Source of the DNA: Planctomycetaceae bacterium
GTDB taxonomy: Bacteria; Planctomycetota; Planctomycetia; Pirellulales; Pirellulaceae
Assembly (NCBI GenBank): GCA_002724245.1
Contig: PBOG01000271.1
Location: forward strand, 17,638-81,637
Reading direction: 5' to 3'
DNA length: 64,000 nucleotides
Of the stretch, positions 1 through 19,507 are shown in pieces. The position numbers and the translations under genes are program-made. The notes below the pieces were generated by a model. The model saw only the letters and a program-made list of their open reading frames with translations. It had not been told where the DNA came from and did not search any database. How positions within the stretch are numbered: the stretch's first letter is position 1; each line of letters begins with the position of its first letter.

Positions 1-1597
1 TAATCACCTTCCAGGAATTCCCTCGATCATCGCTACGATGAAGTTTCTTGGAACCAAAATACAACCGCGTGTGGGAGTGTGGGCTGATCAAGACAGGTGC
101 GTCCCAATTGAAACGTAGTGCATCTTCACCTGCCGCAGGTTGTGGCCGGATGTCGATGGATGTCCCAGTTCGGCGGTCGTAACGCCTGAGGAAACCCTGT
201 TGAGACTCGCAGTAAATCACATTCGGGTCTTCAGGATCGATCGCACAATCGTGGCCATCACCACCGATCGTTGTCTTCCAGTCACTGTTCCGAATCCCGG
301 CCTGATTCCCGGTACGACTGGGACCATACAGAGTATTATTATCCTGCGTTCCACCCACGATATTGTAGAACGGAAAGTCATTGTCGAGACTTAACTTGTA
401 GAACTGAGTCAACGGCAGGTTGGCGCAATACTGGAACGTCTCGGCAAAATCATACGATCGATAGACGCCGCCGTCGCACCCGACTAACAGAAACTCAGGG
501 TCTCGCGGATGGAATGCAACCGCATGATTGTCCACATGCTTCCAGGGACTTTCTACGGTGGTCCAGGTACGGCCACCATCATCGGTGCGTCCTAATTCAA
601 CATTGGCCTGGTAAACAACATCGAATCGATGCGGATCAACCCATATCTCCTGATAGTAATGTGGGCCAGTCCCGCCACTGACATAGTCACTCCTGCGTGT
701 CCAACTTTCACCACCATCTTGAGACCGCCAAAAGCCGCCCTTACGGCCAGATAATTCAATGCTCGTGTACATTACCTCTGGCCTTTGCGCAGAAACTGCC
801 AGAGCAATCTTTCCAAGATCACCCTGAGGCAAACCTCGATTTAACTGCCGCCAGGTTTGTCCGGCATCGACCGATTTGTAGATTCCTGATTCAGGGCCTC
901 CATCGATCAACGCAGCAACGGTGCGGTGACGCTGATGGGTAACCGCAAAGACGACATCTGGATTCCTCGGGTCCAAAAGAACGTCCGTTACTCCCGTATA
1001 AGGCCCTTTCGCCAGAACCTGTGTCCACGAGTTTCCACCATCGCTCGTTTTGTACAATCCTCGTTGTCCACCAGCAGACCAGAGAGGTCCCTGGGCCGCT
1101 ACATAGACCGTCTGGCTGTCTCGCGGATCAACGACAATCTTGGCAATGTGTTCGGTTTCTTTGAGTTGCATGTGCTGAAACGACTTGCCACCATCCAGAC
1201 TCCTGTAGATTCCATCTCCGTAACCGACGTGCCTGCCAGCGACTGCCTCACCAGTCCCTACCCAGATCGTAAAACGATTGCTCGGATCGATCGTGACACA
1301 GCCAATCGAATAGGATCCCTGATTCTCGAAAATGGGCTCCCACGTCGTCCCAGCGTTTTGCGTTTTCCAGAGATTCCCGGAGCCTGCCGCGACATACCAA
1401 GTATTGGGGCGTTCACGATCAACCGCGATATCAGAGATACGCCCCGACATCAGCGCCGGGCCGATCGACCGCAACCGCAATCCGGCAAATGTCGTGGATT
1501 TCATCCGGTTGATCGATTCCTGCTGGCTGAAGCCTTCGGACACCGACAAAAGCCAACAAACTATGATGACGACGTGCCAAGTAAGAACCCGGTTCAT
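1..1597 (-). CDS. Secreted BNR/Asp-box repeat protein, sortilin/VPS10-like glycosyl-hydrolase-like family (partial; C-terminus lies beyond the left window edge)
   Basis: Absent from the ORF track because it runs off the window. The minus-strand ATG at 1597 gives MNRVLTWHVVIIVCWLLSVSEGFSQQ (signal peptide), then ...FAGLRLRSIGPALMSGRISDIAVDRERPNTWYVAAGSGNLWKTQNAGTTWEPIF. The same frame read at ~600 (ELGRTDDGGRTWTTVESPWKHVDNHAVAFHPRDPEFLLVG) and at ~118 (LRFNWDAPVLISPHSHTRLYFGSKKLHRSDDRGNSWKVI) shows repeated Asp-box-like motifs. The frame read open at the three places translated (~1597, ~600, ~118-2); the stretches between were not checked by eye. Plus-strand ORFs at 140-1619 are low-complexity shadows. 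Confidence 0.75.
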   Translation of the reverse strand, partial: MNRVLTWHVVIIVCWLLSVSEGFSQQESINRMKSTTFAGLRLRSIGPALMSGRISDIAVDRERPNTWYVAAGSGNLWKTQNAGTTWEPIFENQGSYSIGCVTIDPSNRFTIWVGTGEAVAGRHVGYGDGIYRSLDGGKSFQHMQLKETEHIAKIVVDPRDSQTVYVAAQGPLWSAGGQRGLYKTSDGGNSWTQVLAKGPYTGVTDVLLDPRNPDVVFAVTHQRHRTVAALIDGGPESGIYKSVDAGQTWRQLNRGLPQGDLGKIALAVSAQRPEVMYTSIELSGRKGGFWRSQDGGESWTRRSDYVSGGTGPHYYQEIWVDPHRFDVVYQANVELGRTDDGGRTWTTVESPWKHVDNHAVAFHPRDPEFLLVGCDGGVYRSYDFAETFQYCANLPLTQFYKLSLDNDFPFYNIVGGTQDNNTLYGPSRTGNQAGIRNSDWKTTIGGDGHDCAIDPEDPNVIYCESQQGFLRRYDRRTGTSIDIRPQPAAGEDALRFNWDAPVLISPHSHTRLYFGSKKLHRSDDRGNSWKVI

Positions 1598-1832: not shown

Positions 1833-2993
1833 CTACAGTTTATTGGCGCGCAGTTGAGAAAGCGGATAGTGATGGTCACGCCAGCGAATACCACCCCGCC
1901 AATAGGTCAGAATGGTATTTCGCACTACGACGTAGACAAACAGCAGAAGTGTCACCGGATACCATAGAACACACCAAAAACGCCCTCCCGCGTCACGGGC
2001 CAACTTTCCCGCCGAGAGCAACAAGATCGCTGCGGTTGCCACATAGAGCCAGCGCGCGATGCCAGCCAGCACCCACATCGCAACAAAGGGCGAGAAAAAC
2101 ACTGCCAGGATCAACACGCAGTTGCCGAGCAGAATGCTCGGCCTGTAATCAACACCAGCCAGCACATTTTTTTCCAGCCCAACCACGACTTCTCGGACTG
2201 TCGCATACCAGGGAACACGAATTTCCGATGACGCCAGCACCAGTTCCTGACGAAATCCCGCGTTCTTGATGAGCTTTCCCAACTTGATGTCATCATCCGG
2301 TCGCATGCGAATCGGCTCGTGGCGCCCAATTTGTTCGTAGACCGATCGACGGACTAAATTAAAGGCACCAATGCCGATGTGAGCAGCACTCTTCGGATCA
2401 GTTGCGCGCCAGGGTACAAAATAGCTCAGGAAGAAAACACTGAACACTGTGGCGAAAGACTCCAGGAGCGTCGTCGGCATACTGAAGGCAGGTAACGCAG
2501 CCAGATGATCGAGCGAATGCGTTTTAGCATATGACACAGTACTCACCAACGCGCGCGGTCGAAACACCACGTCCGCATCCGTGAAGAGCAGGTATTCACC
2601 CGTCGCTACTTCGGCACCGCATTGCATTGCATGGTTCTTGCCCAGCCAATTCTCCGGAAGTGACTCCAAGTGAATCACCACAATGCGTGAATCCTCCAGT
2701 GCCACTCGATCAATAATTTCGCCAGTGCGGTCGGTCGACCGGTCATTGACAACAATCAGCTGGATCGGCGAGTACTGTAGTTCCATCAACGAACGCAACC
2801 CCGCTTCGATGTCGCGTTCTTCGTTCCTGGCAGCGACCACAATGGAAAGTGATGGCAACGCCCCTGCGCATGAGTCAAGGGCCGCCACACGGCGAATCCG
2901 CCGCATGCCAAGCATCAAATGGAGCTGCATTGCTGCCACGATCACCAGATGCAACGATGAAACCCACAGCACTAGATTTTCTGGCAGTGGCAT
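1833..2993 (-). CDS. Family 2 glycosyltransferase, membrane-anchored
   Basis: 386-aa ORF. It has an N-terminal TM segment, a GT2 core (SIVVAARNEERDIE...LIVVNDRSTDRT...LLFTDADV) and C-terminal TM helices. Its start overlaps the upstream stop in TGATG (2991-2995). Confidence 0.85.
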   Translation of the reverse strand: MPLPENLVLWVSSLHLVIVAAMQLHLMLGMRRIRRVAALDSCAGALPSLSIVVAARNEERDIEAGLRSLMELQYSPIQLIVVNDRSTDRTGEIIDRVALEDSRIVVIHLESLPENWLGKNHAMQCGAEVATGEYLLFTDADVVFRPRALVSTVSYAKTHSLDHLAALPAFSMPTTLLESFATVFSVFFLSYFVPWRATDPKSAAHIGIGAFNLVRRSVYEQIGRHEPIRMRPDDDIKLGKLIKNAGFRQELVLASSEIRVPWYATVREVVVGLEKNVLAGVDYRPSILLGNCVLILAVFFSPFVAMWVLAGIARWLYVATAAILLLSAGKLARDAGGRFWCVLWYPVTLLLFVYVVVRNTILTYWRGGIRWRDHHYPLSQLRANKL

Positions 2994-3976
2994 CAGCTTA
3001 ATCCAAGCACGCGTCGTGCATTGCCACGGTAGATTTTTTCGGTGACGTCAGCGGGCAGATCCAGCATTCGTTCAAACAGCTCGAATTGGGGAATGGGTTG
3101 TTTGGGGGTCAGGTAATCGGTTCCAAACATAATGCGATCCTGCCGACGCAGCAAAAACTCGTGACCAAATTCAAGCCCACGGCTGATCGAATTCGCGCCA
3201 CTTCCAGCAGATAAGTCCCCATACAAGTTGTCGTATTTTTCCATCAGACGATCAATCGCGCCACCAGGCGTGGGTGCCCCCTTTGGATAACCGGCCATTT
3301 CAGCGCGGGTGACATTCCCTGAAATCGAAGCCCACCAACCAGGACCATGTCCAATAAAAGTGCAATCCGGATGGTCTTGTAACGCTTTTTCCAAACCGGG
3401 CAGACCGGGCAGATCAGTATTGCGCTGATTATCAAGATGAAAAAGAAGTGGCAAACCTACTTCTGCGCACGCTGCGTAAACCCGCATGTTGGTCGGGGCG
3501 TCGACCGCGATGCCCGGCTTGTGTTCTCCAAACCCTTTGGCACCCGCGTCCTGGTAACGTTTAAGCATGGCAACCAGGCCAGCGAGCCCCCCTCGATACG
3601 ACGTTCGCGGGTCGACCGAGCAAAATGGTATTAAACGGTCGCGATGCGCTCGAGTCTCCGTGAGTACAAAGTCACTCGTCAACGGATAACTGGATGCTTC
3701 AGGAGAAACCAGAGGCAAAACGACAGCCTGCTCAATGTGCACAGAGTCCATCCACCGCAGCAAGACTTCGGCCGATAGATGCTCAGTACTGTTCCAGGTT
3801 TGTCCAAGATGGGTATGCATATCAACGTAGGGACCACGCTTGCCAGACGCAGTGGACCCGTTCAAGCCACCCCGCACCACACCGCAGCCTGCAGCAAGAC
3901 ACCCAACATGCGCCACCACCCGGGAATGAAATTGGCGTCGATTCACCACTGCCGGTCTGCCTCTTGACTCAGTCAT
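2993..3976 (-). CDS. Amidohydrolase-family metal-dependent hydrolase with a Tat-like leader
   Basis: 327-aa ORF. It has an NRRQF Tat-like motif near the N-terminus, a DMHTHLG metal-binding motif, and a TIM-barrel amidohydrolase_2-like C-terminal part (FGTDY). Confidence 0.8.
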   Translation of the reverse strand: MTESRGRPAVVNRRQFHSRVVAHVGCLAAGCGVVRGGLNGSTASGKRGPYVDMHTHLGQTWNSTEHLSAEVLLRWMDSVHIEQAVVLPLVSPEASSYPLTSDFVLTETRAHRDRLIPFCSVDPRTSYRGGLAGLVAMLKRYQDAGAKGFGEHKPGIAVDAPTNMRVYAACAEVGLPLLFHLDNQRNTDLPGLPGLEKALQDHPDCTFIGHGPGWWASISGNVTRAEMAGYPKGAPTPGGAIDRLMEKYDNLYGDLSAGSGANSISRGLEFGHEFLLRRQDRIMFGTDYLTPKQPIPQFELFERMLDLPADVTEKIYRGNARRVLGLS

Positions 3977-12406: not shown

Positions 12407-13348
12407 ATGGAACTCGAAACCAACACTGCGGGGATTCCAATCCGCGCCCTGGGAACTACCGGAACCAAAGTGTCAATCGTTGGCTTTGGAGGCGGCCATT
12501 ACTGTCGTAAACACATCGACGAAAACACCTCGGTGCGTCTCATACAAACCGCCGTAGACCAGGGCATGACCTTTATGGACAACGCCTGGGAATATCACGA
12601 CGGGGAATCCGAGCGGCGCATGGGGATCGCGCTGGCGGGGCGACGTGACAAAGTAACGCTAATGACAAAAGTCTGTGGACGCGACCGCCAGACTGCTCAA
12701 ACACACCTGGAAGATAGTCTTCGCCGCCTAAAAACAGACGTAATCGATATCTGGCAGTTTCATGAGATCAACTACGACAACGACCCCCAATGGATATTTG
12801 AATCCGAGGGCGCGATTCGAGCGGCGGAAGCTGCGCGAGAGGCTGGCAAGGTCCGTTGGATTGGTTTTACTGGCCACAAACACCCGCAAATTCTCGCCAG
12901 AATGTTGTCCCAGGACTTTCCCTGGGACACCTGCCAGATGCCAGTCAATGTGTTAGATGCGCACTACCGCAGTTTCCAACGGGAACTACTTCCCGAATTG
13001 GCCCGGCGAGGTATCGGGGTCATCGGGATGAAAAGTCTTGGTGGCGATGCGCAACTGGTGGGTGATGTTGGCTTGACGCCACAACAGTGTCGTGGCTATG
13101 CCTTGTCTTTACCAATCAGCACACTGGTTTGTGGAATCGAGTCACTGGAAAATCTTGAGCAAGATCTATCCATTGCCCGAAATTTCCAGCCTTATACGAC
13201 CACCGAGCAGGAAGCACTCGTCCAACAGGTTCGTGACGTGGCGGGGGATGGCCGCTTTGAGTGGTTCAAGAGTACGCGTTACTACGACTCACAATTTCAC
13301 CAGCAGCAACACGGTTTCCCTGGCTTTGAAGAGGGTTTCCGGTTGTAG
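12407..13348 (+). CDS. Aldo/keto reductase
   Basis: 313-aa ORF with an AKR-like body (GFGGGH..., DNAWEYHDGESE, IDIWQFHE, GFTGHK). Its 3' end overlaps the convergent kinase gene by 83 nt. Confidence 0.9.
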   Translation: MELETNTAGIPIRALGTTGTKVSIVGFGGGHYCRKHIDENTSVRLIQTAVDQGMTFMDNAWEYHDGESERRMGIALAGRRDKVTLMTKVCGRDRQTAQTHLEDSLRRLKTDVIDIWQFHEINYDNDPQWIFESEGAIRAAEAAREAGKVRWIGFTGHKHPQILARMLSQDFPWDTCQMPVNVLDAHYRSFQRELLPELARRGIGVIGMKSLGGDAQLVGDVGLTPQQCRGYALSLPISTLVCGIESLENLEQDLSIARNFQPYTTTEQEALVQQVRDVAGDGRFEWFKSTRYYDSQFHQQQHGFPGFEEGFRL

Positions 13349-16300
13349 TCTGAAATTCACCGAGCGGGGCCCACTCAACATCGGTTCGGGTGTGCAACCG
13401 ACGAGCGATCTCAATGTAGTCCCGGCGAGGCCCGATTAACCGCGCAGCAATCTGCTCCAATGCGACCTGTTCGCGATCGTAACAGACAACAACATCGCCA
13501 TCTTGATCAGGCACACTGGTCGGTTCCTGCCCTGTGGCTCGCTGAATTTCTTCAACAAGTCGTCCATCCCCCAGGGAATCTGGAGTAATCACCAGCAGAC
13601 GCTGGGCCCCCCCCCCCTCGTCAAAGCAGGGGCGTGCTTGCTGGACAAGTTCCTGTACCACTTTGGCGCCAAGATCACTGACATCTCGCGACACGAGGTC
13701 TACGTTGAAGTTCTTGACAATCTGCAGGATCGCATGACGTGAGGATTTACGGACTTCCAATTTGAGTTGCTGACGACTCTCCATCTGACCAAGCATCAGT
13801 GAAAGCCGGCGATGTGAACTGAAAAATCTACTTGCCAGATCGCGGTCAACTTGTTCGATCAACGCTGCCTCTTCTGATCGCAATCTCTCCGACAAGTGGA
13901 CAGAACGATCCTGTTCCGACATTGGTTGACTCGGTTCACGAACCCCTGGCCGAACCGCGAACTCATCTGCAAGTTGATTCAGGTCTTTCGCCAGCTCCTG
14001 CAGACGATCCATTGCGGTATTGACCTGGGCTGAGATGCCGCGGATCAGGTCACCGACTGATTTCTCCAGCAGATGTTGCAACCGTGTTTCAGCGTACTGC
14101 TTTGCCTGATCCCGCAGTTCCGCTGCAACGATCGCAGGTCGCCTTCGAGATTGCTTCGCGAATGCATGATTCTCAAACGATTCCAACCGTTGTTCCCATG
14201 CACTCTGGTACTCGCGGGATACCTTATGGATCGCATCCAACTGTTCCACCAAGAGATGGACAACCCGCTGTGCTCCAGGCACCCGTAATTCTCTCCGGTC
14301 TACCAAACTGACAATCCATTCTGAACATATCTTTCCCAGATGGACTAACCAAGGTCGCAAAGTCGTTTCAAGTTGTTCTGCCAGGAGCCCACAGGCTGTG
14401 TCGTTCGTCAGATACTGGTGGCGCACTCCCAATGCCCGGTCAATGGCCTGTACCACTTCACGTAAATCTGTTGCCGAGGGAACATTCCCCACAGCAGGAC
14501 CCACCGTCTCGGCGATTAATTGTTCCAGATAAGATTCCTGATCCTGGTCCAGCAGACCAGCCAACAGGTCAGCGACTCGGTCCCGCAATTGGTCACCTGC
14601 GAGCCCCCATTCCTCGAGCTGGCACAGAGCCAATTGTCGACAGAGGTCGCTCTCCGCCAGGCGACGGCCTCCGGAGTGATACCTGGTTTCATCCATTTCA
14701 CTTTGGACAGAACCTCTCCAACCTCGTACTACCATGCGACAAATACGTTCCACATCGTTATCTGAAATGTACTCTCGAATATTTGTAAAACCGGCAATCC
14801 CGAGGGTTCGCAAATAGCCATCTGCCAGAGGTGCATCACTGCTGCGCGGTTCCAGAGCGCGAAATTGATCCAGAACTTCAGCGGAACCAGGGATAACAGA
14901 CCGGTAAAGGTATTCCGCCAACAAACCGGTTGCCGTGTCAAACCGGTCTTCGTTCAAGTCATCTCCTAAATGCACCATATAGGTCGACTGAAACGCCGAT
15001 GGACGGTCGTAATACGCGGGCAGGTCGCAGGCGTGGTCTCCTGGGTAGGCGCCCCCATCTACACAAAAGTGATAGAGCTCGCTCAAAGCCGCATAGGTAT
15101 TGGCAACGGCGAGATCCCGAGCTTTCGTTTGACTCGGTGTGCTATGTGAGAGAATGCCACACACACGTTCGTCCGAGAATCCCAGTTGTGCCAGCACTGT
15201 GCGTACCGCATAGGCGAGATCCGGCAACATGCCGCTCGCAGTGCCACCAGCCAGGGAGCCTACAATGAACACACGCGGACCGGAAAGCGTGCCCGTGGTG
15301 GTGGCATCCGACTCTTGATAATGGGCCATCGATGAAGCAATCGTTTTCCGCAAACTATTGAGCACCGCCGCGCTATGATCCACAAATGCCAATCGTCCAA
15401 GCGGCCTGAGACCCTCTGTCCGTAACGACCTGGGAATATTGTATAGCCAGCGCCGACTCATCCATTGGAGAAGTTGCTGGGATTGTGAGCGATAGTCTTT
15501 ACTGGGGCGAAGTGGCATGGCCAATGTCTGGCTGTCGTGAAGCGTGGTTGAACTTTCACCACGCGTCGCGTCCGCTAACGCGCTGATGTCGGTATCAAGG
15601 AGCAGCATTTGAATTTGGCCCGACACTTGTGGCTCACCAAATCGATCACTCAATCGCTGCTGCAAATGGCGGAACGTGCGCGCGGCTGTCCCACCCACTC
15701 CCAGAAAAATGGTCGGACACAATTGCGGCGGCTGTACCACTGCTTTCAAAGCGGGTAATGATGCGACTTGATGCGAAACGCGTACTAGTGTTTCGGTCCG
15801 TTTGACAGAACGCGGCTTCTGCGATTCGATCGACGCCGTCTCACACATCTGCAAGCTGCCAGCAGCACGGTTTTGGATAACAGCCCGCCGCGGCGGCCGT
15901 CCTGTGCGCACGTCCGCATGCGACAAGTTCTCGACAAGAGAACGACAATTTGGGAATCGCCTCTCCGGATTCTTGCTCAATGCACGACCAATGATGGCCT
16001 GATCGCTACGTGACAACCTGGAAAGGTCGGGGCGCCGGTGAAGATGTTGAACCGCCAGTTGTGCTGCAGTCTGCCCCTCAAAAGGTAAATGCCCGGTCAG
16101 CATCTGCTGGAAGACAATCGCCAGGCTGTACTGGTCACTATACCGATTTGGCTGATCATCAAAGACTTCAGGCGGAGCATAGTTGGGAGTCAAACCCGCC
16201 GCATTCGAGACTTCGGCCTCACGCAGGTTCTTGATCAGCCCAAAATCGGCAACCTTCACACGACCTCCGAGGAGTAGCAAATTGGCCGGTTTGATATCCA

Positions 16301-16748
16301 GATGCTGCAATCCATGGTGCTGAAAAATGTAATCCAAACCGTCCGCCGCATCGCGCAAATAAACCAGCAACTCGTCACGTGGTATACCGATTTTGTCTTG
16401 CCGAAGACATGCTTCAAAACGATCTTCAAGACTACCGTCGGCCAATTCCGTGACAATAACCAGACAATCACGAATGACTTCAATCCGCTCCAATGAAAGC
16501 AGAAAAGGATGATGGGCATCCTTGATACGGTTCAGCGCCTTTAATTCCCGGGCAGCTCGCGCATCATCATGACGCCCAAGCACAATCTTGATTGCTTTCT
16601 CCAGCCCTCCCGGAGCTTCTGCTTTCCAGACATCACCAAATCCACCGGAACCAATTCTCTCCAGAATCCTATATCCTGGAATCGGCTCCAATAGATCAAG
16701 TTTAGGGTTCGAGAGAACTTCGGTTTCCATGCCTGCCACCAGAATCAA
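13266..16748 (-). CDS. Hanks-type Ser/Thr protein kinase fused to a tubulin/FtsZ-like (Tubulin_2-type) domain and a long alpha-helical C-terminal region
   Basis: 1160-aa ORF. The start is TTG 16748, overlapping the upstream stop, or ATG 16730. Kinase core, aa ~25-275 (nt 15924-16676): GSGGFGDVWKA, AIK, HLDIKPANLLL, DFG, APPE. Tubulin-like region, aa ~344-660 (nt 14769-15719): IFLGVGGTAAR (G-box 1-like) and VFIVGSLAGGTASGMLPDLAYAVR (tubulin signature GGTxSG, nt 15231-15248). The remaining ~500 aa are helical and charged. Confidence 0.85.
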   Translation of the reverse strand: MILVAGMETEVLSNPKLDLLEPIPGYRILERIGSGGFGDVWKAEAPGGLEKAIKIVLGRHDDARAARELKALNRIKDAHHPFLLSLERIEVIRDCLVIVTELADGSLEDRFEACLRQDKIGIPRDELLVYLRDAADGLDYIFQHHGLQHLDIKPANLLLLGGRVKVADFGLIKNLREAEVSNAAGLTPNYAPPEVFDDQPNRYSDQYSLAIVFQQMLTGHLPFEGQTAAQLAVQHLHRRPDLSRLSRSDQAIIGRALSKNPERRFPNCRSLVENLSHADVRTGRPPRRAVIQNRAAGSLQMCETASIESQKPRSVKRTETLVRVSHQVASLPALKAVVQPPQLCPTIFLGVGGTAARTFRHLQQRLSDRFGEPQVSGQIQMLLLDTDISALADATRGESSTTLHDSQTLAMPLRPSKDYRSQSQQLLQWMSRRWLYNIPRSLRTEGLRPLGRLAFVDHSAAVLNSLRKTIASSMAHYQESDATTTGTLSGPRVFIVGSLAGGTASGMLPDLAYAVRTVLAQLGFSDERVCGILSHSTPSQTKARDLAVANTYAALSELYHFCVDGGAYPGDHACDLPAYYDRPSAFQSTYMVHLGDDLNEDRFDTATGLLAEYLYRSVIPGSAEVLDQFRALEPRSSDAPLADGYLRTLGIAGFTNIREYISDNDVERICRMVVRGWRGSVQSEMDETRYHSGGRRLAESDLCRQLALCQLEEWGLAGDQLRDRVADLLAGLLDQDQESYLEQLIAETVGPAVGNVPSATDLREVVQAIDRALGVRHQYLTNDTACGLLAEQLETTLRPWLVHLGKICSEWIVSLVDRRELRVPGAQRVVHLLVEQLDAIHKVSREYQSAWEQRLESFENHAFAKQSRRRPAIVAAELRDQAKQYAETRLQHLLEKSVGDLIRGISAQVNTAMDRLQELAKDLNQLADEFAVRPGVREPSQPMSEQDRSVHLSERLRSEEAALIEQVDRDLASRFFSSHRRLSLMLGQMESRQQLKLEVRKSSRHAILQIVKNFNVDLVSRDVSDLGAKVVQELVQQARPCFDEGGGAQRLLVITPDSLGDGRLVEEIQRATGQEPTSVPDQDGDVVVCYDREQVALEQIAARLIGPRRDYIEIARRLHTRTDVEWAPLGEFQTTTGNPLQSQGNRVAAGEIVSRSNAYS
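13607..13617. repeat. C11 (G11 on the coding strand) homopolymer tract inside the kinase-tubulin-like CDS
   Basis: Counted directly: gctggg-ccccccccccc-tcg. On the minus strand it reads GAG GGG GGG GGG GCC (E-G-G-G-A, aa ~1044-1048). The other runs I spotted are 7 nt or shorter, but this was by eye, not a systematic scan. Confidence 0.95.
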
Positions 16749-18130
16749 GCGGACTCGCCTAGAACCATCGCAAAGTAGCTCGCTACAACGCGATCAAAAT
16801 ATTCAGGCTTCATTGAAAATTCAACATCGCGGTACGTACACATATTCCGAACTTGAGACAACAAATCGCGCGGATGACAGCGTCTCAACGCGCGTCCTAC
16901 CGTGCGGTAATGACACTCCAATAGATCCTCAACCACATCGGCACGATAATCACACCCGAAGTGGTAACAGCAAAGCTGAAACAAATGATGAAATTCTTCT
17001 TCAGATGGATCACCTACTTCGATCTTGTAGGGAATACGACGCAAGAACGCTTCATCAACCAGTTCGCAAGGCTCCAGATTCGTCGAAAAGATAATTAACT
17101 GCTCAAAGGGAACCTGAACCTTCTTACCACTAGGTAATGCCAAAAAATCATGACGGTTTTCAAGCGGGATAATCCAACGATTCAGCAAGTCCGCGGGAGC
17201 CACACGCTGACGACCAAAATCGTCTATCAACAAGCACCCACAATTACTCTTGAGCTGTAGCGGGGCTTCACAAATGTTACTGCGTGTATCGTGGCGAATT
17301 TCAAGGTTGTCGAGCGTCAATTCACCTCCGACCACGACCGTCGGGCGTTTGATTCTTATCCATCTGCGATCATGTGACTGAGCGTTCAATAACCCTTCCG
17401 AACTCGTATCCACCATGTGATGGTAAGAAGGGTCATAGAGCTTGATGACCTGGTCCCCATCGATGATGGTGCTTGGAATCCAGATCTGCTGACCAAAACA
17501 ATCGGTAATTCTCCGGGCAAGCGTCGACTTTCCATTTCCCGGCGCACCGTACAAAAACATCCCAGCGCCGGAGTTCACCGCTGGACCCAATAAGTCGAAA
17601 AGATCTTCGGACACTGAAATGTCAGCCACTGCGGCCTCCAGGTCCTGGCGACGCGGCGCCTCTGCACTAATCGACTGGGCGTCAACCGAAATCACATAGT
17701 CCATCAAGGGGACTGGTGCCGGTCCTACATAGGCACAGGTGTCCATGGCAACCCGGGCCTGGGCCGCCCCTTTTTCCGTCAGGCCATAGTAATAATCGTT
17801 GAACGGCGCCGGCCCAGCGTGTACCAGCACCTGGCGTGTACGCAGGCTACTCAGTACTTCCTCCAGCATACCAAACGGCAAACAGAGGTTATCGGCAACG
17901 TTTCGACCGCTCAAAGTCCCATGGATCAGAACGTTTTTACAGATCAACGATTCGATGAAAGAGACCGGAATCCCTGCCTCCTCAACGGTCTGGGGTGCGG
18001 TTGGCCAGAATGCATCATCGGACAGAATCGTTGCCAACAGGCCCAATTCAACTTCTGGAAAATGTGTTGTCAGCATGCCAGGTATCCAGGCGTGATTGGA
18101 AAGAGTGTTCCAGTTTCCAAATTTCCCCAA
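16745..18130 (-). CDS. AAA+ ATPase with a ~185-aa family-specific N-terminal domain
   Basis: 461-aa ORF, starting at TTG 18130 or ATG 18076. Walker A is GAPGNGKST (nt 17522-17548). Walker B is LLIDDFG (nt 17219-17233). It also has a LNRWIIPLE...IIFSTNLEP sensor-like segment and FLRRIPYKIEVGDP. The stop overlaps the kinase gene start. Confidence 0.85.
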   Translation of the reverse strand: MGKFGNWNTLSNHAWIPGMLTTHFPEVELGLLATILSDDAFWPTAPQTVEEAGIPVSFIESLICKNVLIHGTLSGRNVADNLCLPFGMLEEVLSSLRTRQVLVHAGPAPFNDYYYGLTEKGAAQARVAMDTCAYVGPAPVPLMDYVISVDAQSISAEAPRRQDLEAAVADISVSEDLFDLLGPAVNSGAGMFLYGAPGNGKSTLARRITDCFGQQIWIPSTIIDGDQVIKLYDPSYHHMVDTSSEGLLNAQSHDRRWIRIKRPTVVVGGELTLDNLEIRHDTRSNICEAPLQLKSNCGCLLIDDFGRQRVAPADLLNRWIIPLENRHDFLALPSGKKVQVPFEQLIIFSTNLEPCELVDEAFLRRIPYKIEVGDPSEEEFHHLFQLCCYHFGCDYRADVVEDLLECHYRTVGRALRRCHPRDLLSQVRNMCTYRDVEFSMKPEYFDRVVASYFAMVLGESA

Positions 18131-18280
18131 ACAAACTTTAGGTTACTTTTTGGACACCTCGACCTATTCGCCCTGAACGCCAAAACCATTCAACCTGAAT
18201 AACCCGCGTTACCGCACCTTCTTCGTTGCTCGTTCTATTTGTGGCGTAGAGTTTTTCGAGACACTGTTGGCGGACCTGTC

Positions 18281-19507
18281 ATGACCCGCTCTCAGTTCCA
18301 CGCTAATCGCGTTTCACATTTCCAGGAAAGTACTGTGACGACTGCATTTCATCCTGAAAGCATCTCCGGCAAGCAGGGGAACGCTGCGTGGTTTCTGTCA
18401 GGATCACTTGGTCCGGGGGGTGCCGTCACAGATGTCCCCGTCAATTCGACACCGTTCGTCGTAGGACGCAAAACGAACTGTTCACTTTGCCTGGCTGCAC
18501 CGACGGTATCTGGCCAGCACGCAACGATCAGTATGCAGGGTGAACGGCTGTTGATTACAGATCTGGCAAGCACCAATGGAACCTACGTCAACGGCCACCG
18601 TATCAAACAACCTACAATCCTTAACGACAAAGACCTGATTCAATTAGCGGATGCCCCTTTTCGTGTCCGTGCCCAAGTCACTCAAACCGACACACAAACC
18701 CAGCCTGAGAATGCATACAACGACGCGTTAGCGCTTGTGGAATTTGACCGTTTAATGAGCGCACGACTTGTCGCGCCGCGCTACCAGCCCATCCTCGACC
18801 TGAGCCTTCAGGAAACCTCTCCGACTTCACAGACACCAGCATCCCATTGCCCGCAACACATCGTTGGTTATGAAGTCCTGGGAAGGAGCGATTTACCTGG
18901 CCTGGAAACTCCTGCTGCAATGTTTCAGGCCGCCGGCCGCCTGGACTTGCAAGTGCCGCTCAGTCGGATGCTACGCTGTGAAGGTGTACAGGCGACACGG
19001 ACCGTGACCCCACTGCCCCGCCTGTTTATCAACACTCATCCGTCCGAATTAGACGAAGCAGGGCTGATCGAATCTTTGCAGGATCTGCGCAGGCTGGCGC
19101 CTGCACAAGAACTTGTACTCGAAATTCATGAATCTGCCGTCACGGACCTGTCTGCAATGCACCGTTTGGCTACGGTTCTCCGTGACCTCAATATGGGACT
19201 GGCATTCGATGATTTCGGAGCGGGCCAAACAAGACTGGTTGAATTGATCGAAGTACGACCCGATTACGTGAAATTTGACATGAGTCTGATCCGCGACATC
19301 GACACCGCGCATCACGAACGGCAACAAGTCCTGAGGCAGCTGGTCATTATGGTGCAAGAATTGGGTAGCACACCTCTGGCTGAAGGAATCGAACGCTCTG
19401 GAGAACTGGAAACTTGCCGACAGCTTGGGTTTACACTGGGGCAAGGTTATTTTCTGGGTTCCCCACAATCTCTGGAAAACATTGCTTGCCCCAGTGGTGC
19501 CGGATAA
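18281..19507 (+). CDS. FHA domain - EAL domain protein (putative phosphothreonine-regulated c-di-GMP phosphodiesterase)
   Basis: The ORF starts at TTG 18239, but ATG 18281 is the likely start. FHA domain (nt ~18386-18667): VGRK, SGQHA and TNGTYVNG conserved residues. EAL domain (nt ~18731-19462): YQPI, GYEVLGR (EVL variant of EAL), FINTHP, EIHE, DDFGAG, KFD, EGIE, QGY. All catalytic or metal-binding positions appear present. Confidence 0.85.
   Translation: MTRSQFHANRVSHFQESTVTTAFHPESISGKQGNAAWFLSGSLGPGGAVTDVPVNSTPFVVGRKTNCSLCLAAPTVSGQHATISMQGERLLITDLASTNGTYVNGHRIKQPTILNDKDLIQLADAPFRVRAQVTQTDTQTQPENAYNDALALVEFDRLMSARLVAPRYQPILDLSLQETSPTSQTPASHCPQHIVGYEVLGRSDLPGLETPAAMFQAAGRLDLQVPLSRMLRCEGVQATRTVTPLPRLFINTHPSELDEAGLIESLQDLRRLAPAQELVLEIHESAVTDLSAMHRLATVLRDLNMGLAFDDFGAGQTRLVELIEVRPDYVKFDMSLIRDIDTAHHERQQVLRQLVIMVQELGSTPLAEGIERSGELETCRQLGFTLGQGYFLGSPQSLENIACPSGAG

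Follow-up and report, generated by a model that had tools for sequence, protein, structure and literature searches.

A kinase-fused FtsZl1 gene of a Pirellulaceae-type planctomycete is part of a conserved module together with AAA+ ATPase and FHA-EAL genes

The tubulin-like family FtsZl1 was defined by Makarova and Koonin (2010, Biol Direct 5:33), and an N-terminal kinase was already noted there for members from Planctomycetes. The family is described there as having its own inserts between the T1 and T4 loops and a coiled-coil or long-helix region with a C-terminal domain unrelated to FtsZ_C or Tubulin_C; the segment from T6 to H7 was not alignable. Genes for a vWA protein, a diverged P-loop GTPase and OmpA are the typical neighbours of FtsZl1 elsewhere, whereas different neighbours are listed for the planctomycetal branch. 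The kinase-tubulin architecture is mentioned again in papers from 2023 and 2024, and homologues carry the NCBI name "tubulin-like domain-containing protein". The fusion itself, which an earlier note on this DNA had pointed out, has therefore been in the literature since 2010 and is annotated in the databases; as such it is a routine member of its family. Our literature search for experiments on the kinase-tubulin fusion or for FtsZl1 biochemistry found none beyond mentions of the architecture.

Signalling from a Hanks-type kinase to an FHA partner is known, for example from mycobacterial PknB with GarA and FhaA. Further, neighbourhoods that combine tubulin, coiled-coil and vWA/GTPase components have been reinterpreted as conflict systems (Kaur, Burroughs, Iyer and Aravind 2020, eLife 9:e52696).

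Here we describe a kinase-FtsZl1 gene in a stretch of 64,000 nucleotides, referred to as the window, see Table 1. The earlier note had located two tubulin-type motifs within one kinase polypeptide, and both are indeed found in a single ORF: IFLGVGGTAARTF corresponds to residues 347-359 (nt 15672-15710) and VFIVGSLAGGTASGMLPDLAYAVR to residues 493-516 (nt 15201-15272), and the interval 14769-15719 is exactly residues 344-660. The kinase motifs GSGGFG (residues 33-38), HLDIKPAN (149-156) and DFG (168-170) lie upstream in the same polypeptide. Translation more likely begins at the seventh codon, an ATG (nt 16730); the product then has 1154 residues, the same length as in cluster P0001 (99% identical). 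The N-terminal kinase is followed by a linker of variable sequence and by the nucleotide-binding domain, which has a divergent tubulin/FtsZ fold; a long stretch of helices and a conserved alpha/beta domain make up the C-terminal part. The gene is chromosomal, its host being a planctomycete of the Pirellulaceae type, and no further copy was found within the 64-kb window.

Table 1. Features of the fusion gene and of the genes adjoining it, given as nucleotide positions in the window.
Feature	Position	Strand	Details
Kinase-FtsZl1 fusion ORF	13266..16748	minus	1160 aa from TTG start; Hanks-type Ser/Thr kinase and FtsZl1 (Tubulin_2) domain
Protein kinase domain	15909..16673	minus	aa 26-280; Pfam Pkinase and column conservation
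Linker between kinase and tubulin-like domain	15717..15908	minus	aa 281-344; poorly conserved, one conserved island at T318
Tubulin_2 / FtsZl1 GTPase-like domain	14973..15710	minus	aa 347-592 (Pfam); modelled alpha/beta core to ~aa 680
T1-loop equivalent G-V-G-G-T-A-A	15681..15701	minus	aa 350-356; aligned with G-V-G-G-G-G-G in E. coli FtsZ
T4-loop equivalent S-L-A-G-G-T-A-S-G-M-L-P-D	15219..15257	minus	aa 498-510; A504 where the family has Gly
Long-helix / coiled-coil-like region	13635..14672	minus	aa ~693-1038; AlphaFold2 secondary structure, model residues 363-708
Conserved C-terminal alpha/beta domain	13401..13607	minus	aa ~1048-1116 (model 718-786), then conserved RLHTRxDVxW
AAA+ ATPase gene	16745..18130	minus	upstream of the kinase ORF; its end overlaps the TTG start by 4 nt
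FHA-EAL gene	18239..19507	plus	divergently transcribed; Pfam EAL E 2.5e-36, FHA E 6.6e-20

The kinase domain matches Pfam Pkinase over residues 26-265 (E 3.7e-33, 115.5 bits; the cut-off is 31.7). Judged by its residues it appears to be catalytically intact, as K54, D151, N156 and the DFG motif are present and invariant over 113 homologues. The arginine of the HRD motif is absent, and the segment instead reads H149-L150-D151, with Leu in 110 of the 113 homologues. Because H-L-D replaces H-R-D, the domain is a non-RD kinase, i.e., still within the Hanks-type superfamily but of another regulatory subclass. Threonine 187 in the activation loop is invariant in the homologue alignment. The linker that follows has a mean column identity of only 0.24, and inside it lies T318 (nt 15795-15797), which is Thr in 104/113 homologues and is followed by L, F, I or V at position +3 in 96/113. 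Given its short sequence pattern and the linkage of the genes, this T-x-x-L is a plausible candidate for an FHA phospho-threonine docking motif.

The likeness to bacterial Tubulin_2 (PF13809), which had been suggested from motifs, is borne out by a profile match far beyond chance: residues 347-592 align with positions 1-267 of the 356 in the profile (E 1.1e-36; 127.3 bits, with the cut-off at 27). A Pfam search of the fusion protein gave no match to PF00091, which one homologue (P0044) has among its precomputed domains, nor to FtsZ_C or Tubulin_C. In the T1 loop, G352 is invariant over the 113 homologues, and G350 and G353 are nearly so. From T1 to T4 (residues 350 to 501) there are 151 residues, compared with 88 in E. 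coli FtsZ, and within the insert the block RRW..N.P....T...RPLGRLA is invariant. The spacing had been called tubulin-like; given that Makarova and Koonin describe inserts at this place, it is a trait of the FtsZl1 family and not generically tubulin-like. Regarding the other loops to be looked for, an equivalent of T4 is present but none was identified for T7, the loop whose catalytic acidic residue completes the active site of the neighbour in the tubulin/FtsZ superfamily. No NxDxxD motif is recognisable in the fusion protein. Conserved acidic positions (residues 596-600, D/E-D/E-L-x-E/D) follow strand S6.

Solved structures are not within reach of sequence comparisons alone. A phmmer search of residues 328-1160 against PDB returned nothing relevant, and a profile built from 44 Tubulin_2 domains found nothing above threshold in PDB. 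The CetZ match of this profile (E 0.39) is below threshold and spans T1 and T4, and the CetZ-type structure 4b45 has E 5.1. With hhalign, only S1-T1-H1-S2 of the family profile aligns to the single E. coli FtsZ sequence, at 3.5% probability, so that this alignment serves for motif mapping only; in it, GIGGTA stands opposite GVGGGG, and DTD opposite NTD. Taken by themselves, these results would fit glycine-rich motifs that are coincidental loops in a C-terminal extension of the kinase. A comparison of folds was therefore needed. The AlphaFold2 model of residues 331-1160 has a pLDDT of 84.4 and a pTM of 0.80, and the 50 top matches of a Foldseek search against PDB are exclusively structures of the tubulin/FtsZ superfamily, all at probability 1.00, in agreement with the proposed fold. 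They include CetZ (3zid), beta- and gamma-tubulin, phage TubZ (3v3t) and FtsZ of E. coli, S. aureus and M. tuberculosis. The scores are moderate, with target-normalised TM values of 0.36-0.49 over 317-385 columns and a modest best E of 2e-4. Together with the Tubulin_2 match and the conservation of the motifs over 113 homologues, the fold search leaves practically no room for coincidental loops.

Compared with FtsZ, tubulin, CetZ and TubZ (the PF00091 superfamily), the protein thus shares the predicted core fold, GxGGxx in T1, (D/N)-T-D in S2 and GGT-x-S-G in T4. However, the identity is only ~10-15%, the stretch from T1 to T4 is longer than in E. coli FtsZ by ~60 residues, FtsZ_C and Tubulin_C are absent, and the domain is fused to a kinase and a ~460-residue helical and alpha/beta tail. 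Closest among known systems are the planctomycetal FtsZl1 proteins, such as RB10367 of Rhodopirellula baltica and Psta_0486 of Pirellula staleyi. Common to them are the T1 loop, a T4 motif (differing at the position of A504), the inserts, the helical region with the C-terminal domain, the lack of FtsZ_C and Tubulin_C, and the N-terminal kinase. Relatives are found in 387 species-representative genomes, and the best 80 loci are nearly all from Planctomycetota. The combination of a Ser/Thr kinase with Tubulin_2, for which a search had been proposed, proves to be widespread, as it is common to 114 of the best 120 homologue clusters. We are nearly certain that the gene falls within the kinase-fused branch that FtsZl1 / Pfam Tubulin_2 has in planctomycetes, and that it is typical of this branch.

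In the window, the neighbours of the fusion gene code for an AAA+ ATPase and for an FHA-EAL protein, and there is no vWA, GTPase or OmpA gene among them. Since the 2010 paper lists other neighbours for the planctomycetal branch, the missing three do not speak against membership. An FHA-EAL gene also adjoins the P. staleyi gene, as Psta_0487 in the 2010 supplement, while the passages available to us do not mention the AAA+ ATPase; our literature search for a connection between FHA-EAL proteins and Planctomycetes found none. The FHA-EAL product retains the phospho-Thr-binding residues of FHA and all EAL catalytic motifs, and is predicted to be a c-di-GMP phosphodiesterase. The AAA+ protein probably starts at the ATG at codon 19 (nt 18076) and has the Walker A motif GAPGNGKST. 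Of the best 80 genome loci, 63 show linkage to the FHA-EAL gene and 46 to the AAA+ gene. The AAA+ protein is 57-67% identical over loci whose FtsZl1 part is just 36-48% identical. Three gene arrangements occur among the 80 loci, from which it can be argued that selection maintains the linkage. In 19 loci of arrangement B, no AAA+ gene was found within the 0.5-5 kb of upstream sequence covered. There is also a second arrangement, a paralogous one, which includes a GGDEF-CBS gene in addition. The fusion gene thus sits in a conserved three-gene module with the AAA+ ATPase and the FHA-EAL gene.

The best PDB sequence matches of the AAA+ protein are Spastin, Msp1 and VCP (E ~2e-3, Walker A region only), which might be taken as a tie to microtubule severing. 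We dropped this link, as the similarity is generic to classic-clade AAA+ proteins and Foldseek gives Lon, Rpt, Msp1, p97 and FtsH-type motors alike.

We suggest that the module could couple assembly and phospho-signalling to c-di-GMP turnover. The tubulin-like domain would self-assemble in a nucleotide-dependent manner, helped by the coiled-coil region, and thereby bring the kinase domains together. The clustered kinases could then trans-phosphorylate T187 in the activation loop and the linker T318-x-x-L. The phospho-threonine in the linker would in turn be bound by the FHA domain that the neighbouring EAL protein carries, so that c-di-GMP hydrolysis is recruited to, or switched by, the assembly. 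Finally, the AAA+ ATPase, whose fold is unfoldase- or remodeller-like, may take the complex apart or reset it. The proposal resembles PknB with GarA or FhaA in that a Ser/Thr kinase which looks active is encoded in linkage with an FHA protein, and a conserved T-x-x-[LIVF] lies in a flexible segment beside the kinase domain. In contrast, the putative FHA partner here has an EAL phosphodiesterase domain, and the kinase, which is of the non-RD type and cytoplasmic, is joined to a tubulin-like assembly domain. Direct phospho-control of polymerisation or GTP binding (or the reverse), as suggested in the earlier note, is likewise a hypothesis. This mechanism is tentative, and we would put it at somewhat less than an even chance; for identity and mechanism taken together, a rough blended probability is 0.6.

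An alternative is that the module is an NTP-dependent conflict system (anti-phage or abortive), in which the tubulin-like domain provides a threshold oligomerisation and the kinase acts as sensor or effector. The tubulin-containing, GTPase-centric systems read in this way by Kaur et al. (2020) likewise combine a tubulin-like domain and a C-terminal coiled-coil or alpha-helical region with a conserved multi-gene neighbourhood. However, their hosts are Firmicutes and Actinobacteria, and the module has no GAP1-type GTPase, vWA or FNIII, nor any nuclease, protease or other effector gene. The kinase domain does score on the PADLOC models mad6 and PD-T4-6, and the ATPase weakly on IetA and IteA. The former matches, strong as they are, span just the generic kinase fold (residues 25-300) and were rejected as evidence of defence, while the latter are far under any family threshold. 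The flanking genes (an epimerase, an aldo-keto reductase, an SDR, a nitrilase and an ABC sugar transporter) are chromosomal housekeeping genes. Moreover, the module is present in hundreds of species, mostly Pirellulales, with the AAA+ protein conserved across them at the level given above, which suggests vertical inheritance and not a patchy defence island. All this makes a conflict system very unlikely, and signalling through an assembly is the reading that we prefer.

The family consensus in T4 is S-I-S-G-G-T-G-S-G-M, with GGTG[S/G]G in the wider family, including its planctomycetal branch, but the window gene has GGTASG. That this Gly-to-Ala change is a departure from the signature, as had been pointed out, is confirmed by the alignment: 107/113 homologues have Gly at position 504, and just 6/113 have Ala. 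GGTASG is limited to the small clade of the window gene (the window, P0001-P0004 and loci L005-L007), and a separate, independent Ala occurs in P0056 (GGAASG). It could be that the tubulin-like domain of this clade has lost GTP binding and is now a pure structural scaffold that oligomerises the kinase. This would fit the loss of a conserved Gly within the phosphate-binding T4 signature and the fixation of A504 throughout the clade, down to 63% identity, and A504 may indeed weaken nucleotide binding. On the other hand, Ala is small and has been accepted independently in P0056, and the remaining motifs of the nucleotide site (GVGGTAA in T1, D-T-D, D510, N550 and E557) are unchanged. Within the clade the tubulin-like domain shows a dN/dS of ~0.095, of the same order as for the kinase domain, i.e., the domain is under strong purifying selection. 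As this selection stays strong, we consider the scaffold unlikely, and G504A probably tunes the handling of the nucleotide and does not abolish it.

What is added here to the known fusion is the conserved module and the conserved T-x-x-L of the linker. To our knowledge, Planctomycetes lack FtsZ. It can be speculated that the trio (with the GGDEF-CBS protein as a further component where the arrangement is the paralogous one) serves these FtsZ-less bacteria as a core machine of cytoskeletal signalling, in which the assembly state of a polymer of the tubulin superfamily would be turned into phospho-threonine marks and these into local c-di-GMP turnover, with a role in budding division or cell polarity; this wider proposal is a long shot. 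For groups working on planctomycete genetics, the module is a modest but concrete lead to a system that may couple assembly, Ser/Thr phosphorylation and c-di-GMP.

The kinase polypeptide encoded at 13266–16748 contains both glycine-rich motifs in which the earlier note saw a tubulin/FtsZ signature, and the interval it flagged corresponds exactly to aa 344–660, see the table. Pfam assigns aa 26–265 to Pkinase (E 3.7e-33) and aa 347–592 to Tubulin_2 (PF13809; E 1.1e-36, 127 bits against a gathering cut-off of 27). Sequence searches of PDB chains with the tubulin-like region are uninformative; when a profile of 44 domains is used instead, CetZ (3zid) ranks first and spans the T1 and T4 stretches, below significance. 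Structurally, an AlphaFold2 model of aa 331–1160, built from an alignment of 84 sequences, has a mean pLDDT of 84.4 and a pTM of 0.80. Its top 50 Foldseek matches in PDB are tubulin/FtsZ-superfamily proteins only, all with probability 1.00, 317–385 aligned columns and target-normalised TM of 0.36–0.49. They include CetZ 3zid (E 2.2e-4), beta- and gamma-tubulins, phage TubZ 3v3t and FtsZ of E. coli, S. aureus, B. subtilis and M. tuberculosis. In the hhalign alignment to E. coli FtsZ, GIGGTA of T1 pairs with GVGGGG, and a nearly invariant D-T-D pairs with N43-T-D. Since both a profile match and a tubulin-like predicted fold are found, the family assignment is borne out and the tubulin/FtsZ-like reading of aa 347–592 is supported. 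That the motifs are coincidental loops is refuted.

Features of the kinase-FtsZl1 locus (nucleotide positions in the window; aa positions in the kinase-FtsZl1 ORF)
Feature	Position (nt)	Position (aa)	Strand	Remark
Aldo-keto reductase gene	12407–13348		+	convergent with kinase-FtsZl1
Kinase-FtsZl1 ORF	13266–16748		-	1160 aa
T4-region motif VFIVGSLAGGTASGMLPDLAYAVR	15201–15272	493–516	-	read in translated ORF
T1-region motif IFLGVGGTAARTF	15672–15710	347–359	-	read in translated ORF
Kinase motif DFG		168–170		same polypeptide, N-terminal to tubulin motifs
Kinase motif HLDIKPAN		149–156		same polypeptide, N-terminal to tubulin motifs
Kinase motif GSGGFG		33–38		same polypeptide, N-terminal to tubulin motifs
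AAA+/P-loop protein gene	16745–18130		-	461 aa; directly upstream of kinase-FtsZl1, 4-nt overlap with its TTG start
FHA-EAL protein gene	18239–19507		+	divergently transcribed

The true start of the kinase-FtsZl1 gene is probably the ATG at codon 7, as cluster P0001, which is 99% identical, has a length of 1154 aa. At their 3' ends the ORF and the aldo-keto reductase gene share 83 nt (13266–13348), and a related locus (L004, 63% identical) has this convergent overlap too. A conserved C-terminal alpha/beta domain at aa ~1048–1116 (13401–13607) is modelled with high confidence and is followed by the near-invariant residues of an R-L-H-T-R-x-D-V-x-W motif.

The combination of Ser/Thr kinase and Tubulin_2, for which the earlier note had proposed a database search, is widespread. 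At least 735 clusters match the Tubulin_2-plus-tail region at E<=1e-5, and 114 of the best 120 among them carry Pkinase and Tubulin_2 in ~1000–1260 aa. An exhaustive phmmer search of 1.84 billion 50%-identity representatives with the Tubulin_2 region gives 2166 matches at E<=1e-3 (587 at E<=1e-30), most of the top ones beginning around residue 320–390 of 1100–1200 aa proteins. Relatives are encoded in 387 genomes of a species-representative set. The best 80 loci are almost all from Planctomycetota, mostly Pirellulales, the closest being 94% identical in an uncultured Pirellulaceae MAG. One contig labelled Candidatus Nealsonbacteria (L012, JABMRB010000618.1, 3260 nt) encodes a planctomycete-type kinase-FtsZl1 and is most likely mis-binned.

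The family was defined as FtsZ-like 1 (FtsZl1) by Makarova & Koonin 2010 (PMC2875224), who described the N-terminal kinase of its planctomycetal members and could not align T6-H7. FtsZ-like was equated with the Tubulin_2 Pfam model, and the kinase observation repeated, by Santana-Molina et al. 2023 (PMC9871819). Mahajan et al. 2024 (PMC11032199) report that, among cytoplasmic Ser/Thr kinases of Planctomycetota, the tubulin-like domain is the commonest partner. In NCBI, homologues already carry the name "tubulin-like domain-containing protein". The fusion is thus already known, and the window protein is an ordinary member of this family, whose description dates from 2010.

The Gly-to-Ala departure from the T4 signature, also pointed out in the earlier note, holds against 113 aligned full-length homologues with the consensus S-I-S-G-G-T-G-S-G-M-V-L-D. 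At position 504, 107 sequences have Gly and six have Ala: the window protein, the clusters P0001–P0004 (identity down to 63%) and, independently, P0056. In the Ala clade the tubulin-like domain is possibly a nucleotide-dead scaffold. However, dN/dS of this domain is 0.095 against both L005 and L007, two loci of the clade, while it is 0.04–0.05 for the kinase domain and 0.18–0.32 for the linker, and the remaining nucleotide-site residues are unaltered. Such values, together with the intact residues, indicate that the domain is maintained by selection, and both the purifying selection and the intact motifs argue against a complete loss of nucleotide function.

In the kinase domain, K54, D151, N156 and DFG are invariant in the homologue alignment, and so is the activation-loop T187 within G-L-T-P-x-Y-A-P-P-E. 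The HRD arginine is Leu family-wide (H-L-D at aa 150–152, 16293–16301), which makes this a non-RD kinase. The linker (aa 281–344) has a mean column identity of ~0.24 and a single conserved island around T318 (15795–15797), which is Thr in 104/113 homologues, with L/F/I/V at +3 in 96/113. T-x-x-[LIV] is the classic phosphopeptide preference of FHA domains. From its sequence, T318-x-x-[LFIV] looks like a candidate FHA docking site, and because it fits this preference it supports, although it does not prove, a connection from the kinase to the FHA-EAL protein.

Mapping the neighbour proteins by tblastn against the 80 best genome loci links FHA-EAL to kinase-FtsZl1 in 63 of them, in three arrangements: A, the window type, FHA-EAL(-), AAA+(+), PK-FtsZl1(+) in 22 loci; B, an FHA-EAL paralogue(+) directly upstream of PK-FtsZl1 in 36; and C, AAA+, PK-FtsZl1, FHA-EAL(+) in five. 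The other loci are mostly too short to judge. Of the 36 loci with arrangement B, 17 have the AAA+ gene 2.8–4.5 kb farther upstream. In one of these loci, L023, a GGDEF-CBS diguanylate cyclase gene (2081–3016, minus strand) separates AAA+ from the FHA-EAL paralogue; its genome also contains arrangement A (L011, both in CAWDFN010000001.1). This paralogous module strengthens the c-di-GMP connection. The FHA phospho-Thr-binding residues (GR76, S91xxH94, N113-G-T) and the EAL catalytic motifs (EVLGR, N265, ExxE, DDFG, KFD, EGIE, QG) are all present and intact.

The AAA+ protein, whose gene probably starts at the ATG of codon 19 (nt 18076), shows 57–67% identity across nearly all the loci (tblastn), against 36–48% for the FtsZl1 part, and is thus far better conserved than its partner. 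More than 100 planctomycete clusters match it at 63–68% identity, within a family of more than 8000 clusters at E<=1e-5. No Pfam model matches it above threshold. Its predicted structure (pLDDT 76) shows an N-terminal winged-helix-like domain and is similar to Lon, proteasomal Rpt, Msp1, p97 and FtsH-type motors and to the P. furiosus hexamer 8p49.

We suggest that nucleotide-dependent self-assembly of the FtsZl1 domain would cluster the non-RD kinase domains, which would then trans-phosphorylate each other at T187 and T318. The FHA-EAL protein would dock, placing or switching c-di-GMP hydrolysis, and the AAA+ motor would reset the assembly. The module could instead belong to the conflict systems that Kaur et al. 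2020 proposed. However, the flanking genes are housekeeping genes, so the locus is not a defence island; the conservation is lineage-wide and the module is without effectors, all of which weakens this explanation.

For P. staleyi an FHA-EAL neighbour, and for B. marina an FHA protein, are listed undiscussed in the 2010 supplement (PMC2875224). We found no paper on FHA-EAL in Planctomycetes, and no mention of an AAA+ partner in the FtsZl1 literature covered here. The conserved AAA+/FHA-EAL module and the linker T-x-x-L motif are new here, as modest leads on this family in a phylum without FtsZ.
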